Source of the DNA: Promethearchaeia archaeon
Lineage (GTDB): Archaea > Asgardarchaeota > Lokiarchaeia > Sigyniarchaeales > SOKP01
NCBI GenBank assembly: GCA_029856105.1
Contig: JAHQWH010000132.1
Span: forward strand, 1 to 29,230
Direction: 5' to 3'
DNA length: 29,230 nucleotides
Shown here: positions 19,094 to 28,651 of the stretch, in pieces
Numbering within the stretch: position 1 is the first letter of the stretch
Layout: each line of letters starts with the position of its first letter
Position numbers and translations under genes: made by a program
The notes under the pieces: generated by a model
Databases searched by the model: none
Seen by the model: the letters and a program-made list of their open reading frames with translations, nothing else
Told to the model about the DNA's origin: nothing

Positions 19094-19153
19094 TTAATTG
19101 ACAACTAAATAGAAATTCAAAATTGTAAAATTTGAGGTGGAGTAAGAAAGAAA

Positions 19154-21094
19154 ATGGAAAAATCTGAAAATCATCGGATTGGATACTATGCATGCCAGTG
19201 AGGTATAAATATACGTAGTAAAGTTGATTGCAACGAGTTAGTACAATTTGCCAAAGGCTTAGATGATGTGGTTATTTCAAAAACTCATGCCTTTCTATGA
19301 ACAGAAAGCGGTCAAAACGAGATAATCAAAGATATAGAAGAAAAAAACTTAGATTGTATTGTAGCTTCTGCTTGAACACCTAGGACACACGAACCAATTT
19401 ACAGGGCATCGCTCGCTAAGACCGCTGCGAATCCTTACTTTTTTCAAATGGTTAATGTAAGAGAACATTGTTCTTGGTGTACTGAAGATAACGAAGAGGC
19501 TTTAGAAAAAGCAAAAATCTTGGTTTATGGCGGAGTCAATAGAGCAAGATGTTTGGAGGCCATCCCTATAAGAACAGTTCCCGTTGAAAAAGCAACCTTA
19601 GTGGTTGGTGGAGGAATAGCTGGGATGAACGCCGCGTTAGACCTAGCAAATGGAGGGATAAAAGTTTATTTAGTCGAAAAAAATACCACAATCGGGGGAA
19701 GGATGTCTCAGTTAGACAGAACCTTCCCAACCGACGATTGTTCGATTTGAATTTGCGGACCCAAAATGCTTGAAGTCAATCGCCACGAAAATATCGAGAT
19801 TCTAAGCTATAGCGAAGTGAAGAAGGTCGAAGGATATGTCGGAAATTATATAATCACCGTTGAAAAGAAGTCTCGGTACATAAACAACGATTGTAATGGT
19901 TGTGGTGCCTGTTCTGAAGTGTGTCCGATATATACTTCGAATTATTTTGACGAAAATTTAGGAGTGAGAAAAGCAATAGATATAGCGTTTGGACAAGCAG
20001 TACCTTTTTTGTACGACATTAATAGAGATGTATGCGTTGAATGTTTTAGTTGTGTGGAAGCTTGTGAGTTAGAAGCCATTGACTTCAGTCAAGTGCCTGA
20101 AGAAGTTACGTTTAATGTAGGAACGATAATAATCGCAACTGGATGGGATATTTACGAACCATATGGAGAATACGGATACGGAAAGTTCGAAAATGTGATT
20201 CAACAAGCCCAACTTGAAAGAATCTTAGCGCCGAATGGTCCATTAGAAGGACATGTTCATAGAATTTCGGACACCAAAAAACCTAAGGAAATCGTGTTTA
20301 TTCAATGCGTAGGTAGTCGTAACACGGAAAGACCTTATTGTAGTGGCGTTTGTTGTATGTTATCGTTGAAAAACGGAAAATTGCTTAAACAAGAATTTCC
20401 AGAAGCGAACATTACCATTTGCTACATAGATATGAGAACGAACGAAAAAGGGTTCGAAGAATATTATCAACGAGCTAAAAATTCTGACATCAGGATGATC
20501 CGGGGAAAGGTTGGCGAAATTACTGAAGATCCAGAGACTAAAAACGTAAATATTCGAGTTTATTCGTCTTTAACTGACGAAATTATTAAGATTAGCGCGG
20601 ATTTAGTCGTTCTATCTACAGCTGCATTACCATCAAAAGGTACGGAGCAAATAGCTAAAGTATTAAACTTAGACGTCGATACAAACGGGTTTTTAACAGA
20701 AGCTCACTTTGGATTGATGCCACAAGAGACTAATACTAAGGGAATTTTTATAGCTGGGTTTGCTCAAGGACCAAAGGATATTGCGTATTCGGTTTCTCAA
20801 GCAAGAGCCGCTGCGAGTAAAGTAGCTGAATTAACCGCCCCTGGAAAAATAGATATTGAATTAATAATCGCTGAGGTTTATAAAGAGCTGTGTATTTCGT
20901 GTAAAAGGTGCGAAAAAGCATGCCCTAAAAACGCTATAAAAGTTGTTCGCGACGAAGGTGCTGTTGTAGACGAGATAAATTGCGATGGGTGCGGGATTTG
21001 CGTTACTTGTTGTCCCACTCAAGCAATAGACATTAGATATTATCGAGATTATCAACTATTTACTGAAATTGATGGAATTTTAGGAGGAGGTTAA
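19154..21094 (+). CDS. hdrA: Heterodisulfide reductase subunit A, selenoprotein with four Sec (U16, U49, U74, U199), 646 aa
   Basis: One frame from ATG 19154 to TAA 21092-21094, with in-frame TGA at 19199, 19298, 19373 and 19748. Contexts RIGYYACQ-U-GINI, HAFL-U-TESGQ, IVASA-U-TPRTHE and FPTDDCSI-U-ICGPKM align to CH-C-GINI, MYS-C-SSDSQ, IVAS-C-TPRTHE and FPTNDCSL-C-ILAPKM of the paralog at 25565. FAD motif VVGGGIAG, two ferredoxin units and CVGSR..YCSGVCC are intact. Confidence 0.93.
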
Positions 21095-21099
21095 ACGGA

Positions 21100-21558
21100 A
21101 TGGAGAACAATTATAAAATTGTAATATTTGCTTGTCTAAAGTGAGGATACAGCGCTGCAGATTTAGCAGGAGTCTCTCGTATGAAATATACAGCATCAGT
21201 AAAGATTATTAAAGTAAGATGCACTGGAAGAGTCGATGTAAAGCACATCTTATATAGCATAAAAGCTGGAGCTGACGGAGTTATGGTTGTTGGATGACGA
21301 CCAAATGAATGTCAGTTTAAAGAAGGAAATTTTAACGCCCAAAGACATGTTGATTTTGCTAATAGAATTTTGGAAAAGCGAGGATTCGGTAGTCGAAGAG
21401 TTAATATGTATTGGCTAAGTAGTGCTGAGGCAGAAAAGTTTGTTAAAAGCGTCGAGGATGCCTACGAAAAAGTAAAAAGATCTGGACCCAATCCGTTAAA
21501 AAGCATGGATATTACGAAAGTAAAACAAAAAACATTAACTACTCCCGTAGAAGAATGA
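21100..21558 (+). CDS. vhuD: MvhD/VhuD [2Fe-2S] subunit, selenoprotein with two Sec (U15, U66), 152 aa
   Basis: SD GGAGGAGGT (21083-21091), ATG 21100. In-frame TGA at 21142 (IFACLK-U-GYSAADLAGVSR vs FCCNW-C-SYAGADLAGVSR of 28671) and at 21295 (GADGVMVVG-U-RPNEC vs GADGVLITG-C-HIGDC). RCTGRV is intact. Confidence 0.93.
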
Positions 21559-21616
21559 ATCTTATAAAAAAAATTTAGTTATAAGATGACTTACCTTGCG
21601 AAGGTGGGAGTTTAAT
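21534..21616 (+). promoter_or_regulatory. Eukaryote-like (Loki-type) SECIS element
   Basis: ATGA 21555-21558; stem ATCTTATAA 21559-21567 / TTATAAGAT 21579-21587 (9 perfect bp); loop AAAAAATTTAG; GA 21588-21589. Lower helix ACTCCC 21541-21546 / GGGAGT 21606-21611, extendable by ATTAA 21534-21538 / TTAAT 21612-21616. Lies directly at the end of two UGA-containing genes. Confidence 0.85.
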
Positions 21617-21669: not shown

Positions 21670-23175
21670 ATGGTTCAAGTTGTAAATAACAAGTTATTTA
21701 AGGGTATTTCTCCCAAAGACTTAATGGAGGCTACTTATCAAGCGTCGGGAAATTTTCAAGTAAGAGCTTTCTTTGAAGCAAAAGAAGAGATATTAAAAGT
21801 AGGTAAATTTTCTGAAAACGAATTTTACGAAATCCTAGATGCTATGGTAGAGGCAGAAACTGAGCGAAAATTAGTATTGAAAGAATTAAAGGGTAATAAG
21901 CCGTTGTTTTTAGAAGAAATCGTAAAGATCGTCAAAGATTTCCCTCCTGAAAATGTTATTAGAGACATTATTTATTTAAAAGAACAAGGTTACGTTCAGG
22001 AACACGTGGAAGTCAAGACTAAAACGGTTATAAAAAAAATCAAGGGAGAAGAAAAAGAAGTTGAAGTAAAAGAATTCTTTTACAGATATCAAATAAGGAA
22101 ATTGCCAGACGATTTTATTGAGCACTATTTTGAACCTGTTTCTATAGTTTTTAACGCGGGAGTCTGTTGTCAATGTGGATGGTGCTCTGCGATCTGTCCT
22201 GTAAACGCCATCATAGTGACGGCAGACACTCTTGAAATTGACGAAGACATTTGCATGAAATGTGGGTTGTGTTTTTCGGTCTGTCCTCGTTCCTTTTCGA
22301 TAGATCAAGCTAACGAAAGCATTAAAAAGTTAGACAAATCTTTAAAATGGTCTGACAAAACTGGAGCTTATATTAACGCTTACTCAGCATCAACGACCAA
22401 AGATGATATTAAGAAAGTTCGTCAAGATGGTGGTATTGTAACTTCTATCTTGGAATATCTTTTAGAAAATAATCTTGTTGATGCAATTGTAGCTGTGCAG
22501 CATTCTGAGGAATTATGGAGACCTGAACCTGTAATAGTAGAAAACTTAAAAGATTTATATAAAACAGGTGGAACCAAATATGCAAATTCGCCTTCTTTAA
22601 CCGTCATAGATCAATGTAAGAAATACGAGAAGATAGCTTTCGTAGGAGTACCTTGCATGATGAAAGCTATAGAAAAGGGTGCTATGTTTCCAAGTGGGTT
22701 ACCATTTTTTAAAAATATTAAATACAAGATCGGGCTTTTTTGCATGGAATCATTTCCTTACGACGGAATAATTAATTTAGCTAAAGAACAATTCAATAAG
22801 GACATAAAGGAACTAACCAAAATGAATATTGGAGGCGGTAAATTTATAATAAACTTGAAATCTGGAGAGCAAATGGATGTACAACTTAAAGAAGTGCAAA
22901 AATACGCGCGAGATAATTGTCATTTTTGTGAAGATCTAACATCAGATTACGCCGACATTTCTGTAGGATCAATTGGGTCGCAAGATGGATGGTCTTCTGT
23001 AATAACGAGATCGAAAGATGCAGATAAACTATATAACGATATAGTTAAAGCAGGATTAATCGAATCTAACAGTTTAAAGGATGTGAAGCCCGGGCAATTT
23101 CTAGTAGAAAAAATTGGTGGAATTAAACGAAAAAAATGTAAATCAATAGATTTGAGGGAGAATCAAGATGAGTAA
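21670..23175 (+). CDS. FrhB/FdhB-family protein with ~150-aa N-terminal helical extension and 2x[4Fe-4S]
   Basis: CCQCGWCSAICP, CMKCGLCFSVCP, RQDGGIVTS, GTKY, AFVGVPC, IGLFCMESF, CHFCEDLT...ADISVGSIGS. Confidence 0.9.
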   Translation: MVQVVNNKLFKGISPKDLMEATYQASGNFQVRAFFEAKEEILKVGKFSENEFYEILDAMVEAETERKLVLKELKGNKPLFLEEIVKIVKDFPPENVIRDIIYLKEQGYVQEHVEVKTKTVIKKIKGEEKEVEVKEFFYRYQIRKLPDDFIEHYFEPVSIVFNAGVCCQCGWCSAICPVNAIIVTADTLEIDEDICMKCGLCFSVCPRSFSIDQANESIKKLDKSLKWSDKTGAYINAYSASTTKDDIKKVRQDGGIVTSILEYLLENNLVDAIVAVQHSEELWRPEPVIVENLKDLYKTGGTKYANSPSLTVIDQCKKYEKIAFVGVPCMMKAIEKGAMFPSGLPFFKNIKYKIGLFCMESFPYDGIINLAKEQFNKDIKELTKMNIGGGKFIINLKSGEQMDVQLKEVQKYARDNCHFCEDLTSDYADISVGSIGSQDGWSSVITRSKDADKLYNDIVKAGLIESNSLKDVKPGQFLVEKIGGIKRKKCKSIDLRENQDE

Positions 23176-24280
23176 TAAATCATTTCAGGATTTAATAACG
23201 GAAGTACACGATAGAGGCATTTGTCAAGAATGTGGAGGCTGTGTAAGTTTTTGTAGCTCAGCCGAATTTAATATTATTGGATTTAAAGACCAATATTCGC
23301 CTCCAGAATACATTAACAAGGATAACTGCCTTGAATGTGGAATATGTTATTATATTTGTCCACAAACACATATTTTAGACGATGATCTCAACAAAACCTA
23401 TAAGTTTTCTGATTATACTTCTATGCCAATCGGCTATTACGAGGATATATATTCGTGTCAAGCCACTGACAAGGAATTCTTAGAATATGGAACTGATGGC
23501 GGTGTAGTGAACTCAATAATAAATTATTTGATAGAAAAAAAAATGGTTGATGGAGCAATTGTTTCGAGAACTGATGCTCCTTTTTCCAGAGAAGCAGCTT
23601 TTGCTAATAATAAACCTGATTTAATAAGATCTTCTGGAGCTAAATTGGATATTTCGCCTCAATTAGACGAGATACAGAAGTTTAGTACTTACACTCATTC
23701 AATTCCAGAATTGAATCATTATAAATTCAAAAAACTAGCGGTAGTGGGTACTCCTTGCCAATTATATACTATCAGGTGTATGCAAGATTTAGGAGTAACT
23801 CCTTCTGAAAATGTTGAGATATGTCTTGGCTTATTTTGTTATGAAAATTTCTTTTTTGAAAAATCGCAGATAGAGAAATTTGAGAAAGATTTTAACATAA
23901 AATTTTCTGACATTGTTAAGATCAACATCAAAGAGGATGTGATTTTTAGGTTAAAGAGTGAAGGAACAGGAGAAAAAATAATTCATATTCCATTTAATCA
24001 TTTAAAAGAGTATATGCGTCCAGCTTGCAACGCTTGTGATGACTTCACTAATATTTTTGCTGATATCTCATTTGGAGGGTTAGGCTCACCTGATAAATAT
24101 ACTACTGTTATACCTCGAACTGAGAAAGGTAAAAATATTTTATCTCAAGTAATTAATGCTGGAATAATTAATTGCTTAGATTTAGATTCGAATAAAAAAA
24201 CTAAAATGATTGAGTTAATTTCCCAATTTTCTCAATCAAAAATTAAACGTAAAGAAGATTTTATGAAGAATATAATTTAA
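23168..24280 (+). CDS. FrhB/FdhB-family protein with 2x[4Fe-4S]
   Basis: CQECGGCVSFC, CLECGICYYICP, TDGGVV, AVVGTPCQ, LGLFCYENF, CNACDDFT...ADISFGGLGS. Overlaps the upstream gene by 8 nt. Confidence 0.88.
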   Translation: MSNKSFQDLITEVHDRGICQECGGCVSFCSSAEFNIIGFKDQYSPPEYINKDNCLECGICYYICPQTHILDDDLNKTYKFSDYTSMPIGYYEDIYSCQATDKEFLEYGTDGGVVNSIINYLIEKKMVDGAIVSRTDAPFSREAAFANNKPDLIRSSGAKLDISPQLDEIQKFSTYTHSIPELNHYKFKKLAVVGTPCQLYTIRCMQDLGVTPSENVEICLGLFCYENFFFEKSQIEKFEKDFNIKFSDIVKINIKEDVIFRLKSEGTGEKIIHIPFNHLKEYMRPACNACDDFTNIFADISFGGLGSPDKYTTVIPRTEKGKNILSQVINAGIINCLDLDSNKKTKMIELISQFSQSKIKRKEDFMKNII

Positions 24281-24293
24281 AGAGGAGTCTATT

Positions 24294-25565
24294 ATAACAG
24301 AAACAAAAAGAGATATTGAAAGAAAAAAGTTATTTGGAGATACCTTAGATTATTTAGACAAAATTTACGAACCAGATTTAAGAAAGCTATTAAAGAGATG
24401 CTATCAATGCGCTCGTTGCAGTGGGGTTTGTCAATTAAGTAAGGTACAAAAATACACTCCAAGCAAAATAATTCAGCTAATTTTAGAGGGTTTTGAACAA
24501 AAAGTATTAGAGAGCGAGGTATTATGGGATTGTTTAACCTGTAATCAATGTCTTAAAGATTGTCCAGAGGAAATAAACTTTGCAGATCTTGTTAGAATGG
24601 CCAGATATAAGATGAGGCATTCATACAATCAAAATATTGATGAATCAATAGCACATAAAGGAATCTATACGACGATTTCAGAAATAATGAGTCGTCCATA
24701 TATTAATCCTGATAGATCTCTTGAATGGATTCCTAAAGGTTGCAAAACATCGGAGAAAGGTAATATTTTATATTATGTTGGTTGTTTACCTTATTTCAAT
24801 TACGAATTTGATAATTTAGATTCTATAGCAAAAAGTACGCTACAAATTTTATGTAAAGTCGAAAAAGAACCTATAGTCGTTTTTAAGGATGAAATTTGTT
24901 GCGGACACGATATATACTGGGGTCAAGGAAAGTTAAAAACATTTATTAAGTTAGCAAAAAAAAATATTGAAATGTTTGAGAAAGCAGGAGTCTCTACTAT
25001 CGTAACTGCATGTGCTGAATGCTATAGAACTTTTAAGATTGACTATCAAAAAATTTTTGAAGATTTTAAAGAAAAATTTGAAGTAAAGCATATTATTGAA
25101 TACATTTATGAGATGTGGAAGGAAAGTAGAATAGAATTTATAAATACGAGTCAACTTGAAGAACAGATTTCATTTACATATCACGATCCATGTAGATTAA
25201 GCAGGTTTTTACCCAAAGAAAATAATATTACTGAAAGTGTTCGGGAAATATTTAAGGAATTCAAAAAGTTAGGTTATAATTTTAACGAGATGGAACATAA
25301 CAAGTCAAACTCTTTATGTTGTGGTGTGAATTCTTGGATGAATTGCAACGAGAAATCTAAAGCTCTTAGATATAAAAGAATGTTAGAAGCCAAAGCTGCT
25401 GGAACGATAATGGTAACTTCCTGTCCAAAATGTAATATACACCTTTCTTGTCTCCAAAATGATATCGAAGAAATTTCTTCAATAGAAATTTTAGATTTCT
25501 CTGAGTTTTTAATAAATCATATTAAAGTTATTGATCCTAACAAAAAAGGCGAGGAAAAGGAATAA
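24294..25565 (+). CDS. HdrD-like (HdrC+HdrB-type) Fe-S/CCG-domain oxidoreductase with probable non-canonical ATA/ATT start
   Basis: Frame is open from 24276. The part upstream of the track's ATG 24597 encodes CYQCARCSGVCQ and LWDCLTCNQCLKDCP (two [4Fe-4S] motifs). Downstream CCG motifs: YYVGC, EICCG, TACAEC, YHDPC, LCCG, TSCPKC. SD GAGGAG at 24282-24287. Confidence 0.85.
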   Translation: MTETKRDIERKKLFGDTLDYLDKIYEPDLRKLLKRCYQCARCSGVCQLSKVQKYTPSKIIQLILEGFEQKVLESEVLWDCLTCNQCLKDCPEEINFADLVRMARYKMRHSYNQNIDESIAHKGIYTTISEIMSRPYINPDRSLEWIPKGCKTSEKGNILYYVGCLPYFNYEFDNLDSIAKSTLQILCKVEKEPIVVFKDEICCGHDIYWGQGKLKTFIKLAKKNIEMFEKAGVSTIVTACAECYRTFKIDYQKIFEDFKEKFEVKHIIEYIYEMWKESRIEFINTSQLEEQISFTYHDPCRLSRFLPKENNITESVREIFKEFKKLGYNFNEMEHNKSNSLCCGVNSWMNCNEKSKALRYKRMLEAKAAGTIMVTSCPKCNIHLSCLQNDIEEISSIEILDFSEFLINHIKVIDPNKKGEEKE

Positions 25566-28500
25566 TGGAAGGGTCGGTATTGGTCATTGGCGCTGGTATT
25601 GCGGGAATCCAAACTTCTTTAGATCTAACCGAACTTGGATTTAAAGTTTATCTCGTAGAAAGATCGCCTTCAATTGGCGGAAGGATGGCTCAACTCGATA
25701 AAACTTTCCCTACAAATGATTGTAGCCTATGCATTTTAGCCCCGAAGATGGTTGAGGTGTTTAGAAATCCTAATATTAAGCTAATGACTTATCACGAAGT
25801 CAAGAAAGTTAGTGGAGATGCTGGAAATTTTACCGCTACTATTTTAAAGAAGCCTCGTTATCTTGACGAATCCTTGTGTAAGGGGTGCGGAGATTGCGCA
25901 GCTAAATGTCCTAAAATTGAAGTTCCCAATCTCTTCGATTGTAATCTTGGCAAAAGAAAGTCAATTTATATACCTTTTCCACAAGCAGTCCCTCCAGTAT
26001 ATCTAATTGACCCTGAGCTTTGCCTTAAAATAACTAAAGGTGTATGCGGAGTCTGTCAAAAAGTATGTACGGTTGAAGCGATAGATTTTGAGCAAAAACC
26101 TAAAGATATTATTATTAATTGTGGAGCTGTTGTTGTAGCGACGGGATTTGACATGCCTGCTGAGCGACTCTCTTCTAGATGGGGTTATCAATATCAAAAT
26201 GTAGTGAGCGCTTTAGAATACGAAAGAATATTATGTGCCTCTGGTCCGTTTGAAGGTCATGTCTTACGCCCTAGCGACCAAAAAGAACCTGAGAAAATAG
26301 CTTTCATTCAATGTGCGGGTTCAAGAGATTTACACGAGAAAGTTCCTTATTGTTCAAGCGTGTGTTGCATGTATACTGCAAAGGAGGCAATTATTACTAG
26401 AGAACACTCAGATAATGCTGAATGTTTTGTTTTTAGACACGATCTCAGAGCATACGGAAAGAATTTCTATGAATTTACCCAAAGGGCTCAAGACGAATAT
26501 GGCGTAAAATATTTTCAGACAAAAATAAGCACTATTGAAGAGGAACCGGAAACTAATGATTTAATTATTCGCTATGAAGATTTAAAAAATGGAACATTTA
26601 ACGATTTTCGAGCTAGTTTAGTCGTTTTAGCTACACCATTGGTTCCTACAAAAGGAACTGAAGATTTAGCAAGCATCTTAAAAGTTGAATTAGACAAATA
26701 CAATTTTTTTAAAGAAAAATCTTATTTTAATAAATCCTTGTCATCAAAAGGGGGAGTTTTTCTATGTGGATTCTGTCAAGGACCAATGGACATACCCGAA
26801 ACTGTAGCTGACGCAAGTGGAGTAGCATCTCAAGTCGCAATGTTACTAAATTCAGTAAAATTTAACGAAATTAAAGAAAAGATATATGACGAACCCGAAA
26901 AGGAAATAAAGATAACCGATGACCCTCGTATAGGTGTGATTATCTGTCACTGTGGGATTAACATTGGAAAATATGTTGATGTTTCTAGTGCTGTAGATTA
27001 TGTTAAAACATTACCTTATGTTGTTCATTGTGAAGATAATATGTATTCATGTTCTAGTGATTCTCAAACAAGGATTAAGGAAGTAATAAAAGAACATAAT
27101 CTTAATAGATTTATTGTAGCTTCTTGTACGCCAAGAACCCATGAATCATTATTTCAAGAAACCTGCTTAGAAGCTGGATTAAATAAATATTTATTCGAAA
27201 TGGTTAATATACGCGACCAATGCAGCTGGGTTCATATGAATGAATATGAATTTGCAACTGAAAAAGCTAAAGATTTAATACGAATGGCTGTGGCTAAAGC
27301 GCGGTTACTAAAACCTCTTACTGAAACAAAATTAGATATTACACCAACCGCTTTAGTTATTGGTGGTGGTGTAGCTGGTATGACTGTTGCCCTCAATCTT
27401 GCTAATCAAGGATTTAAAACATATATTGCTGAAAAAGAAGATAAGTTAGGAGGTAATCTTAACAACCTTAACATATTATATCCAATCCACGAGGAGGCTT
27501 CAAATTTTTTAAAAGAGATTATAAACAAAGTTGAGAAAAATAAAAATATTCAGATTCTCCTCGAGTCAGATATTAAAGAAATTAAAGGATATATCGGTAA
27601 TTATAATGTTTCTATTACCGCATCAAATCAAAAAGCTCACGATTTAAAAGTTGGCACAATTATTATTGCTACTGGAGCTCAAGAATTAAAACCAGAAGGT
27701 ATTTTTCAGTATGGTAAAAATAATAAAAATGTACTTACTCAATTAGAATTAGAAAAAAGATTGAAAGAAGAGGGTAAATCTTGGCTCGACAACATAAATC
27801 GCATAACGATAATTCTCTGTGTCAATTCAAGGCAAAAAGAAGGAATAACTTATTGCTCAAATATTTGTTGTGGAGTGAGTATTAAAAATATTAGTATTTT
27901 AAAAGAATTAAAACCAAACCTCGAAATTGTTGTTCTGTACAGAGATATCCAGATGGCTAAAAAGGAGTATGAAGAATACTATCGTGAACGTAGAAAAGAG
28001 GCTATGTTTCTGAGATACGACTTAGAAAACATACCAAAAATAGTGAAAAAAAGTGATAAATCCGAAAAATATCAAGTATCTGTATTCGACACGAATTTAC
28101 AAGATAATCTTCAATTTGATACAGATTTAATTGTATTATCAACTCCTATGATTCCCTCTGACAATTTAGAAGGATTAGCTAGGATGCTTAAAGTACCATT
28201 GGATAAAAATGGTTTTTTCTTAGAAGCACATGTTAAGCTAAGACCTTTAGATTTTGCTACAGACGGTATTTTTCTATGCGGATGTGCTCAATGGCCAAAG
28301 AATATCCAAGATTCAATATCACAGGCAAATGGAGCTGCAGGGAGAGCAAGTAGATTTTTAAGTGCTAAAACAATTACAAGCTCAGGATTGATAGCAGAAG
28401 TAAACCCAGAAAGATGTATAGGTTGTGGGAAGTGTGTTTCCGTTTGTCCATATAATGCTATTGAACTTAAGGAAGCAATTATGGACTTTGAAGAAATTAG

Positions 28501-28651
28501 TTTAAAAGTTTCAAAATCCTTTATTAACTCAGCACTATGTAAAGGTTGTGGCACATGTGCGGCAACATGCCCAAACGGTGCAATATCTGTAAAGCATTAT
28601 GATTTCGATCAAATTTATGCTATGATAGAATCTTATTTATTAGAATCGTAA
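25565..28651 (+). CDS. hdrA: Large all-Cys HdrA-like protein with two fused HdrA flavin modules
   Basis: Module 1: VLVIGAGIAG, LDKTFPTNDCSLC, inserted ferredoxin, CAGSR..YCSSVCC. Then an internal HdrA N-terminal domain (RIGVIICHCG..CTPRTHE..NIRDQCSW). Module 2: ALVIGGGVAG, CVNSR..YCSNICC, then a C-terminal 2x[4Fe-4S]. TAATG overlap with the upstream gene. Confidence 0.92.
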   Translation: MEGSVLVIGAGIAGIQTSLDLTELGFKVYLVERSPSIGGRMAQLDKTFPTNDCSLCILAPKMVEVFRNPNIKLMTYHEVKKVSGDAGNFTATILKKPRYLDESLCKGCGDCAAKCPKIEVPNLFDCNLGKRKSIYIPFPQAVPPVYLIDPELCLKITKGVCGVCQKVCTVEAIDFEQKPKDIIINCGAVVVATGFDMPAERLSSRWGYQYQNVVSALEYERILCASGPFEGHVLRPSDQKEPEKIAFIQCAGSRDLHEKVPYCSSVCCMYTAKEAIITREHSDNAECFVFRHDLRAYGKNFYEFTQRAQDEYGVKYFQTKISTIEEEPETNDLIIRYEDLKNGTFNDFRASLVVLATPLVPTKGTEDLASILKVELDKYNFFKEKSYFNKSLSSKGGVFLCGFCQGPMDIPETVADASGVASQVAMLLNSVKFNEIKEKIYDEPEKEIKITDDPRIGVIICHCGINIGKYVDVSSAVDYVKTLPYVVHCEDNMYSCSSDSQTRIKEVIKEHNLNRFIVASCTPRTHESLFQETCLEAGLNKYLFEMVNIRDQCSWVHMNEYEFATEKAKDLIRMAVAKARLLKPLTETKLDITPTALVIGGGVAGMTVALNLANQGFKTYIAEKEDKLGGNLNNLNILYPIHEEASNFLKEIINKVEKNKNIQILLESDIKEIKGYIGNYNVSITASNQKAHDLKVGTIIIATGAQELKPEGIFQYGKNNKNVLTQLELEKRLKEEGKSWLDNINRITIILCVNSRQKEGITYCSNICCGVSIKNISILKELKPNLEIVVLYRDIQMAKKEYEEYYRERRKEAMFLRYDLENIPKIVKKSDKSEKYQVSVFDTNLQDNLQFDTDLIVLSTPMIPSDNLEGLARMLKVPLDKNGFFLEAHVKLRPLDFATDGIFLCGCAQWPKNIQDSISQANGAAGRASRFLSAKTITSSGLIAEVNPERCIGCGKCVSVCPYNAIELKEAIMDFEEISLKVSKSFINSALCKGCGTCAATCPNGAISVKHYDFDQIYAMIESYLLES

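Follow-up and report, generated by a model that had tools for sequence, protein, structure and literature searches.

A probable hdrA-vhuD selenoprotein operon in a Lokiarchaeia genome, and the predicted convergence of its four HdrA selenocysteines on one iron-sulfur cluster

How is a gene with four in-frame TGA codons to be read, and what would it mean for the protein if each of them stood for a cysteine-like residue? The question is raised by a contig of 29,230 nucleotides from a Promethearchaeia archaeon (GenBank assembly GCA_029856105.1, contig JAHQWH010000132.1, forward strand; Asgardarchaeota, Lokiarchaeia), the whole of which we refer to as the window. At positions 19154-21094 it carries a gene for a protein of the heterodisulfide reductase subunit A family (hdrA), followed at once by a vhuD gene with further in-frame TGA codons. 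We consider, with a probability of roughly 0.85, that the two form a functional selenoprotein operon, hdrA-vhuD, of this Lokiarchaeia genome (3.66 Mb, 32% GC).

The hdrA frame and its conserved UGA codons

Translated with TGA as selenocysteine (Sec, U), the forward strand from 19154 to 21094 yields 646 residues, with four in-frame TGA codons and no TAA or TAG before the terminal TAA, exactly as stated in a first reading of the window made from the letters and a program-made list of open reading frames (ORFs), hereafter the sequence-only reading. That reading had also noticed that the ORF list splits the gene and misses its beginning; indeed, under translation table 11 only 19448-19750 (100 amino acids, aa) and 19766-21094 (442 aa) are listed, and the first 98 codons are absent. 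By our own estimate, at 32% GC, 646 codons in a row without TAA or TAG would arise by chance with a probability of about 1e-17, which, taken together with the retention of the four TGA codons in orthologs (described below), excludes a chance frame. The features of the gene, including its flavin adenine dinucleotide (FAD) site, are these:

19134..19139, forward strand: GAGGTG, the ribosome-binding site ahead of the hdrA start codon ATG, read from the sequence
19154..21094, forward strand: hdrA, 646 codons, stop TAA, five-domain type with a full-length match to solved HdrAs; its domains are an N-terminal Fe-S domain, an FAD/TrxR fold, an inserted ferredoxin domain and another ferredoxin domain at the C terminus
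19199..19201, forward strand: UGA for Sec16, second residue of a CxC motif in the N-terminal domain
19298..19300, forward strand: UGA for Sec49, in the N-terminal domain
19373..19375, forward strand: UGA for Sec74, in the motif A-U-T-P-R-T-H-E-P
19748..19750, forward strand: UGA for Sec199, at the canonical FPTxDCxxU site adjoining FAD

Residues 3-646 align end to end with solved HdrAs (9sfi_A, E 3e-196; 5odc_A, 5e-194; 8rvu_a, 1e-187; 7bkb_A, 2e-166), so that the alignment with HdrA families proposed in the sequence-only reading bore its assignment out. Pfam recognizes Pyr_redox_2 (the FAD/pyridine-nucleotide-disulfide fold) and ferredoxin domains, the FAD motif VVGGGIAG lies at residues 149-156, and FPTDDCSIU occupies residues 191-199; the column of U199 is X (Sec197) in the Methanococcus maripaludis HdrA 9sfi_A, in keeping with the earlier statement that methanococcal HdrA has its Sec at this very site. 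Each TGA had also been said to face a Cys in a paralog further along the window, and BLASTP against that paralog (25565-28651) places U16, U49 and U74 on Cys in the second half (E 2e-91), and the Cys facing U199 lies in the first (E 8e-111). Judged by sequence identity to the solved chains, the predicted fold is already fixed as that of HdrA.

Further evidence comes from relatives. A search of 40 related genomes, 24 of them of the same genus, recovered an hdrA ortholog in 23 of the 24 same-genus genomes (76-93% identity over residues 1-240), mostly with four TGA codons and in some cases with three; among closed genomes of the order there are paralogs with two or three Sec. For 21 sequences, namely the window and 20 same-genus orthologs (80-94% identical), we then listed which codon occupies each Cys column. 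Columns 16, 74 and 199 carry TGA in all 21, and column 49 carries TGA in 16 and TGT or TGC in the other five; the remaining conserved Cys columns show only drift between TGT and TGC, with one exception at column 300. Environmental orthologs down to 70% identity, called with TGA as Trp, always have W at 16, 74 and 199 and have it at column 49 in about half of the cases. The TGA codons are likewise kept, with the frame intact, in about 10 environmental clusters (70-94% protein identity, the 20 genomes included), and the stretches from one TGA to the next show conservation across the genomes and clusters alike. The conservation check suggested in the sequence-only reading thus came out in favor of its proposal. 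TGA also terminates one of the 22 long ORFs of the window and so still works as a stop here. Invariant TGA in some Cys columns, set beside TGT/TGC drift in the others, argues for selected Sec codons with an occasional exchange of Sec and Cys; from the aligned codons, the pattern is unlike what nonsense mutations or reassignment of the codon would leave.

Two side observations concern the number of such codons. One same-genus ortholog (L064; G012:C5:760-3560, minus strand) has a fifth in-frame TGA, at column 300, where the second CX2CX2CX3C motif in the inserted ferredoxin domain has its third Cys; this TGA represents an additional Sec ligand position or a lesion. Further, the genome of the window (G000) encodes other Sec-type HdrA paralogs, and their Sec sets are nested: positions 199 and 16 (contigs C194 and C57), 199, 16 and 74 (contig C11), and all four in the window, with position 14 never Sec.

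In public collections this gene appears as fragments of 100 and 442 aa (“hypothetical protein” or “heterodisulfide reductase subunit A”) or at full length with Trp, the latter because short contigs were called under a code in which TGA is Trp. Proteins at least 90% identical to the product of a neighboring gene and to the 100-aa fragment are named Lokiarchaeota/Promethearchaeota archaeon Loki_b31. Since databases hold only hdrA fragments or products with Trp at UGA, the corrected frame has value for annotation.

Where the four selenocysteines would sit

HdrA holds six [4Fe-4S] clusters (PMC5861303). The ligand motifs in the window protein comprise four Cys/Sec in the N-terminal domain (14, 16, 49 and 74), a CX10CX3CC motif in the TrxR fold (385, 396, 400 and 401) and two ferredoxin domains, each with two CX2CX2CX3C motifs (247-257 and 294-304; 580-590 and 610-620). 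Outside the CxxC pair, 24 conserved Cys/Sec are kept in all 21 sequences, three of them as TGA, and this number equals six clusters times four ligands, which fits ligation by Cys and Sec throughout.

The N-terminal domain carries one of these clusters, HA3 (or A3), a mobile “shuttle cluster” (PMC13518236, PMC13580544). Columns 14, 16, 49 and 74 are Cys or TGA in 120 of 120 diverse HdrA N-terminal domains, no other column in those domains is invariably Cys or Sec, and the same four are the only N-domain Cys common to five solved HdrAs (Cys11, Cys13, Cys46 and Cys71 in 5ODC). With just four such columns to hold a cubane, at least two of the three N-terminal Sec should be ligands, a count that already allows for Cys197 of the partner protomer (Cys197') plus one other residue as ligands of HA3. 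In the literature searched, the ligand residues of HA3 are given only indirectly, in a single paper: in Chadwick et al. (2022; PMC9012536), the N-terminal cluster of the crystal structure is described as ligated by N-domain Cys together with Cys197 of the partner protomer. The Cys197 column is that of U199 in the window, and the separate standing that the sequence-only reading had given to U199 does not survive this description.

We therefore have five candidate ligands for HA3, four of which are Sec here, so that any four of them would give at least three selenolates. The arrangement that we propose is that Sec16, Sec49, Sec74 and Cys14 would make up the ligand set of HA3, and that Sec199 of the partner protomer would contact HA3 or relay electrons between HA3 and FAD. 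That Sec16, Sec49 and Sec74 are all ligands of HA3, as had been suggested from the sequence, appears likely in view of the invariance of their columns and the published location of the cluster, and that at least two of the three are ligands is likelier still. We also lean, with somewhat less assurance, toward the fuller picture in which all four Sec surround HA3 and make it a naturally occurring [4Fe-4S] cluster ligated by three or four selenolates. The bonds between Se and Fe would then tune the potential of HA3, and with it the low-potential branch of bifurcation; alternatively, selenium may speed the making and breaking of the Sec199'-HA3 contact as the arm swings.

Several points weigh against this assignment, which draws on conservation and on second-hand descriptions of crystal structures. 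The sequence context of Sec16 resembles that of MvhD Cys16, described as a non-ligand “additional” Cys (PMC13580544). His79, five residues past position 74 at a place where MvhD has Cys, is also invariant in the 120 N-terminal domains, so that ligation by three Cys plus His or Cys197', with Sec16 left free, is possible. In recent cryo-electron microscopy the Cys-Sec197 pair is described either as a selenylsulfide or with an unknown ligand bound to it, and not as a cluster ligand (PMC13518236, PMC13580544). A BLASTP comparison of the HdrA N-domain with VhuD gave no significant match, and the argument from homology relies for that reason on motif context and on published structure descriptions.

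The invariant His79 lends some weight to a different view, in which the N-terminal Sec, Sec16 if no other, would not ligate an Fe-S cluster but would be redox-active selenols in a thiol/selenol relay with Cys196/Sec199 and Sec15 of VhuD. This is the “multiple catalytic Cys” interpretation of 2016: Mariotti et al. (2016; PMC4989117) state that the Sec positions are not cluster ligands, and a selenylsulfide relay at the Cys-Sec197 pair has since been proposed (PMC13518236). We think it unlikely. The 2016 statement is older than the 2017 structure that revealed the N-terminal cluster, and later structures make the non-ligand view, as worded in that text, improbable; moreover, the count of invariant columns calls for at least two of the three Sec as ligands, and the 24 conserved Cys match all-Cys ligation of six clusters.

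The preferred reading, selenolate ligation of HA3, is where the remaining interest of this locus lies. That all four Sec converge on HA3 was not found stated in the literature searched, and the 2016 paper stated the opposite. Mapped on the Hdr structures of 2017-2026, the Sec residues would mark the HA3 coordination sphere and a docking Cys/Sec pair rather than scattered “catalytic cysteines.” For bioinorganic chemists this points to a natural, heavily Se-ligated cubane worth seeking; for those who study the Hdr mechanism it hints at selection on HA3 ligation or on contact chemistry.

How the UGA codons would be decoded

The selenoprotein interpretation made from the sequence was sound as far as it went; what it overlooked were a second gene with two Sec codons and a shared selenocysteine insertion sequence (SECIS) downstream, which would explain how the hdrA UGA codons are decoded:

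21100..21558, forward strand: vhuD/mvhD-like gene of 152 codons, Sec15 at 21142-21144 and Sec66 at 21295-21297
21541..21611, forward strand: Loki-type SECIS, core 21555-89, AUGA at 21555-58 and GA at 21588-89
21559-67 paired with 21579-87, forward strand: SECIS helix of 9 bp, with the 11-nt A-rich loop AAAAAAUUUAG at 21568-78

The vhuD gene starts 5 nt 3' of the hdrA stop, and its product matches the M. maripaludis VhuD chain 9sfi_K (E 5e-39), which has X at both Sec columns, as well as the NF045873 VhuD family (165 bits). Its third in-frame TGA (21556-21558) is its stop and lies within the AUGA core of the SECIS, too close for recoding. A vhuD with two Sec follows at 20 of 20 orthologous loci, starting 4-28 nt past the hdrA stop, and that stop is TAA or TAG, never TGA, at all 21 loci; since it is UAA in the window, hdrA is not read through.

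The SECIS is equally constant: at the vhuD stop of all 21 loci, AUGA and GA flank a stem of 9 bp with an A-rich loop of 11 nt. In the 21-sequence alignment, four pairs of the helix show compensatory changes; pairs 2-9 are standard in every sequence and the closing pair in nine only. The covariation score was reached by none of 500 shuffles, and registers slid along the alignment drop to about 45% pairing. A pattern scan found 21555-89 to be the only SECIS-type element in the window, and a scan of the window at Rfam gathering scores gave no match, the lokiSECIS being without a curated family. SECIS-like elements also follow each of the other Sec-type hdrA-vhuD pairs in the genome (contigs C11, C194 and C175).

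A helix I of 5-8 bp (ACUCCC at 21541-46 with GGGAGU at 21606-11) encloses the SECIS, its 5' strand being the end of the vhuD coding sequence, and an extra small hairpin (21593-21605) stands between the GA and the 3' strand of helix I. Both recur with altered sequence in most of the 21 loci, each folded alone.

As it is single, the SECIS must serve six UGA codons, 260 to 2356 nt upstream, in two cistrons. The genes hdrA and vhuD would most likely lie on one bicistronic mRNA, and the six UGAs would be recoded by this one eukaryote-like SECIS 3' of vhuD with an archaeal EFSec.

Much of the Sec machinery that the sequence-only reading had named as a check is present. The genome encodes SepSecS (4e-115) on contig C16, 5 kb from a selB/EFSec-like factor (selB score 231 bits, EF-Tu score 142), and a PSTK-like kinase; the PSTK and selB models score below their cut-offs, which were set for other lineages. 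There are also two tandem selD genes with one in-frame TGA each, that is, Sec-type selenophosphate synthetases (G000:C222:10694-13087). The part of that check that failed was tRNA-Sec, undetected in the genome with RF01852, with ARAGORN (default, intron and relaxed modes) or with a pattern scan on GC, T-loop and anticodon, all of which yielded only ordinary tRNAs or AT-rich false positives. A candidate on contig C16 proved to be an intron-containing class II tRNA and not tRNA-Sec.

This negative result weighs against a functional selenoprotein operon. What is observed directly is an intact gene, conserved TGA codons, a SECIS and genes of the machinery; the insertion of Sec at the six UGAs is predicted from these. 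In addition, the protein misses the NCBIfam equivalog cut-offs for methanogen HdrA (best families NF040770 HdrA2, 764 bits against a cut-off of 1100, and NF041778, 589 bits against 1400), so that its substrate need not be CoM-S-S-CoB, the heterodisulfide of coenzymes M and B; by sequence, 19154-21094 has the HdrA family fold and is not demonstrably a CoM-S-S-CoB reductase. With regard to the missing tRNA, RF01852 gave nothing above its cut-off in five near-complete genomes of the same genus either (G005, G008, G012, G017 and G018; 97-100% complete), which suggests a limit of detection rather than absence of tRNA-Sec; the tRNA-Sec of the lineage may be interrupted by an intron, or its divergence may exceed what the model or its pre-filter can recognize.

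Could UGA instead be read as Cys, Trp or Gly, through a reassigned code or near-cognate read-through? Gene callers did obtain full-length proteins with TGA as Trp, and some systems starved of selenium can place Cys at UGA. We reject this reading, to which we give very little credence: the TGAs are confined to columns that hold Cys in known selenoprotein families, an invariant Cys ligand could not credibly be replaced by Trp, the window ORF that ends in TGA aligns as a whole gene, hdrA stops avoid TGA at every locus, and a SECIS is present together with genes for SepSecS, PSTK, EFSec and SelD. That hdrA is a pseudogene or split gene, its TGAs nonsense mutations of TGT or TGC and its products at most fragments of 100 and 442 aa, fares worse still and is effectively refuted: TGA is one step from TGT and TGC, acts as a stop in this genome (one of 22 window ORFs) and leaves only fragments in public annotation, but the same TGAs recur with the frame intact in 20 other genomes and about 10 environmental clusters, a covarying SECIS and Sec machinery are present, and the 442-aa fragment would be without the FAD-binding motif.

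Neighboring genes and comparison with known systems

Downstream of the proposed operon, on the same strand, lie further genes:

21670-23175 and 23168-24280, forward strand: two FrhB/FdhB-like proteins
24282/24597-25565, forward strand: HdrC+HdrB-like fusion
25565-28651, forward strand: fused double HdrA, 1028 aa
28671-29108, forward strand: all-Cys MvhD

The frame of the HdrB-like CCG protein is open from 24282; ahead of the ATG listed at 24597 it contains two HdrC-type ferredoxin motifs, and none of ATG, GTG and TTG occurs between 24282 and 24597. Probably 24282-25565 is a 427-aa HdrC+HdrB fusion with a non-canonical start (ATT or ATA) after a GAGGAG site; its best NCBIfam match is TfrB. As a counterpart of HdrBC, this fusion alone lies nearby. 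The first half of the fused double HdrA has a CxxC (Cys197-type) motif and is without the N-terminal Fe-S domain. It shows the complementary pattern that has been interpreted as a built-in heterodimer (Chadwick et al., 2022; PMC9012536).

By their sequences, these neighbors are more suggestive of a bifurcating system that resembles Hdr and is fed by modules of FrhB type than of a methanogenic heterodisulfide reductase. HdrA and MvhD would form a flavin-based electron-bifurcating module, assembled as HdrA2-VhuD2 as in methanogen complexes, with bifurcation at FAD and HA3 shuttling the low-potential electron; its likely partners would be the neighboring FrhB-like and HdrBC-like proteins.

Whether the exact four-Sec pattern had been catalogued was left open in the sequence-only reading, which had noted that multi-Sec selenoproteins are reported in Lokiarchaeota; in essence it had been, since Mariotti et al. 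(2016; PMC4989117) describe this very unit. There, Loki HdrA has up to four Sec, at five positions that always include the canonical one; VhuD is always directly downstream, and HdrA stops are never UGA; one lokiSECIS (9-bp stem, 11-nt loop) past VhuD serves up to six UGAs over about 2 kb; and an AUGA doubling as stop codon is described for VhuU.1. A 2024 survey of Asgard selenoproteins again reports the hdrA-frhD pairing with a shared SECIS (PMC11227280). Given this match of architecture, hdrA is a gene of a kind that had already been described, and neither study gains from it anything new in kind. The exact four-Sec pattern has almost certainly been published, and, as far as the 2016 text goes, nothing in the window differs in kind from its Loki units, of which this is another genome's copy. 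It is a clean, conserved example of the record case: one SECIS for six UGAs in two cistrons over 2.4 kb. Set beside the 2016 Loki units, the window differs in having the vhuD stop within AUGA and a SECIS enclosed by the covarying helix I with its extra hairpin.

The window HdrA has all the Fe-S and FAD motifs of methanococcal HdrA (M. maripaludis, 9sfi; M. thermolithotrophicus, 5odc), and it shares with M. maripaludis the Sec at FPTxDCxxU in HdrA and the same two Sec in VhuD. Methanococcal HdrA, however, has one Sec, with Cys in the N-terminal ligand columns, whereas the window HdrA has four; the methanococcal SECIS is of the archaeal type, and the host of the window is not a methanogen. The SECIS of the window instead resembles the eukaryotic type I element (RF00031) in its AUGA...GA kink-turn core and in the unpaired A's of its apical loop, and it differs from RF00031 in its shorter helix, in its overlap with the end of a coding sequence and in serving two cistrons.

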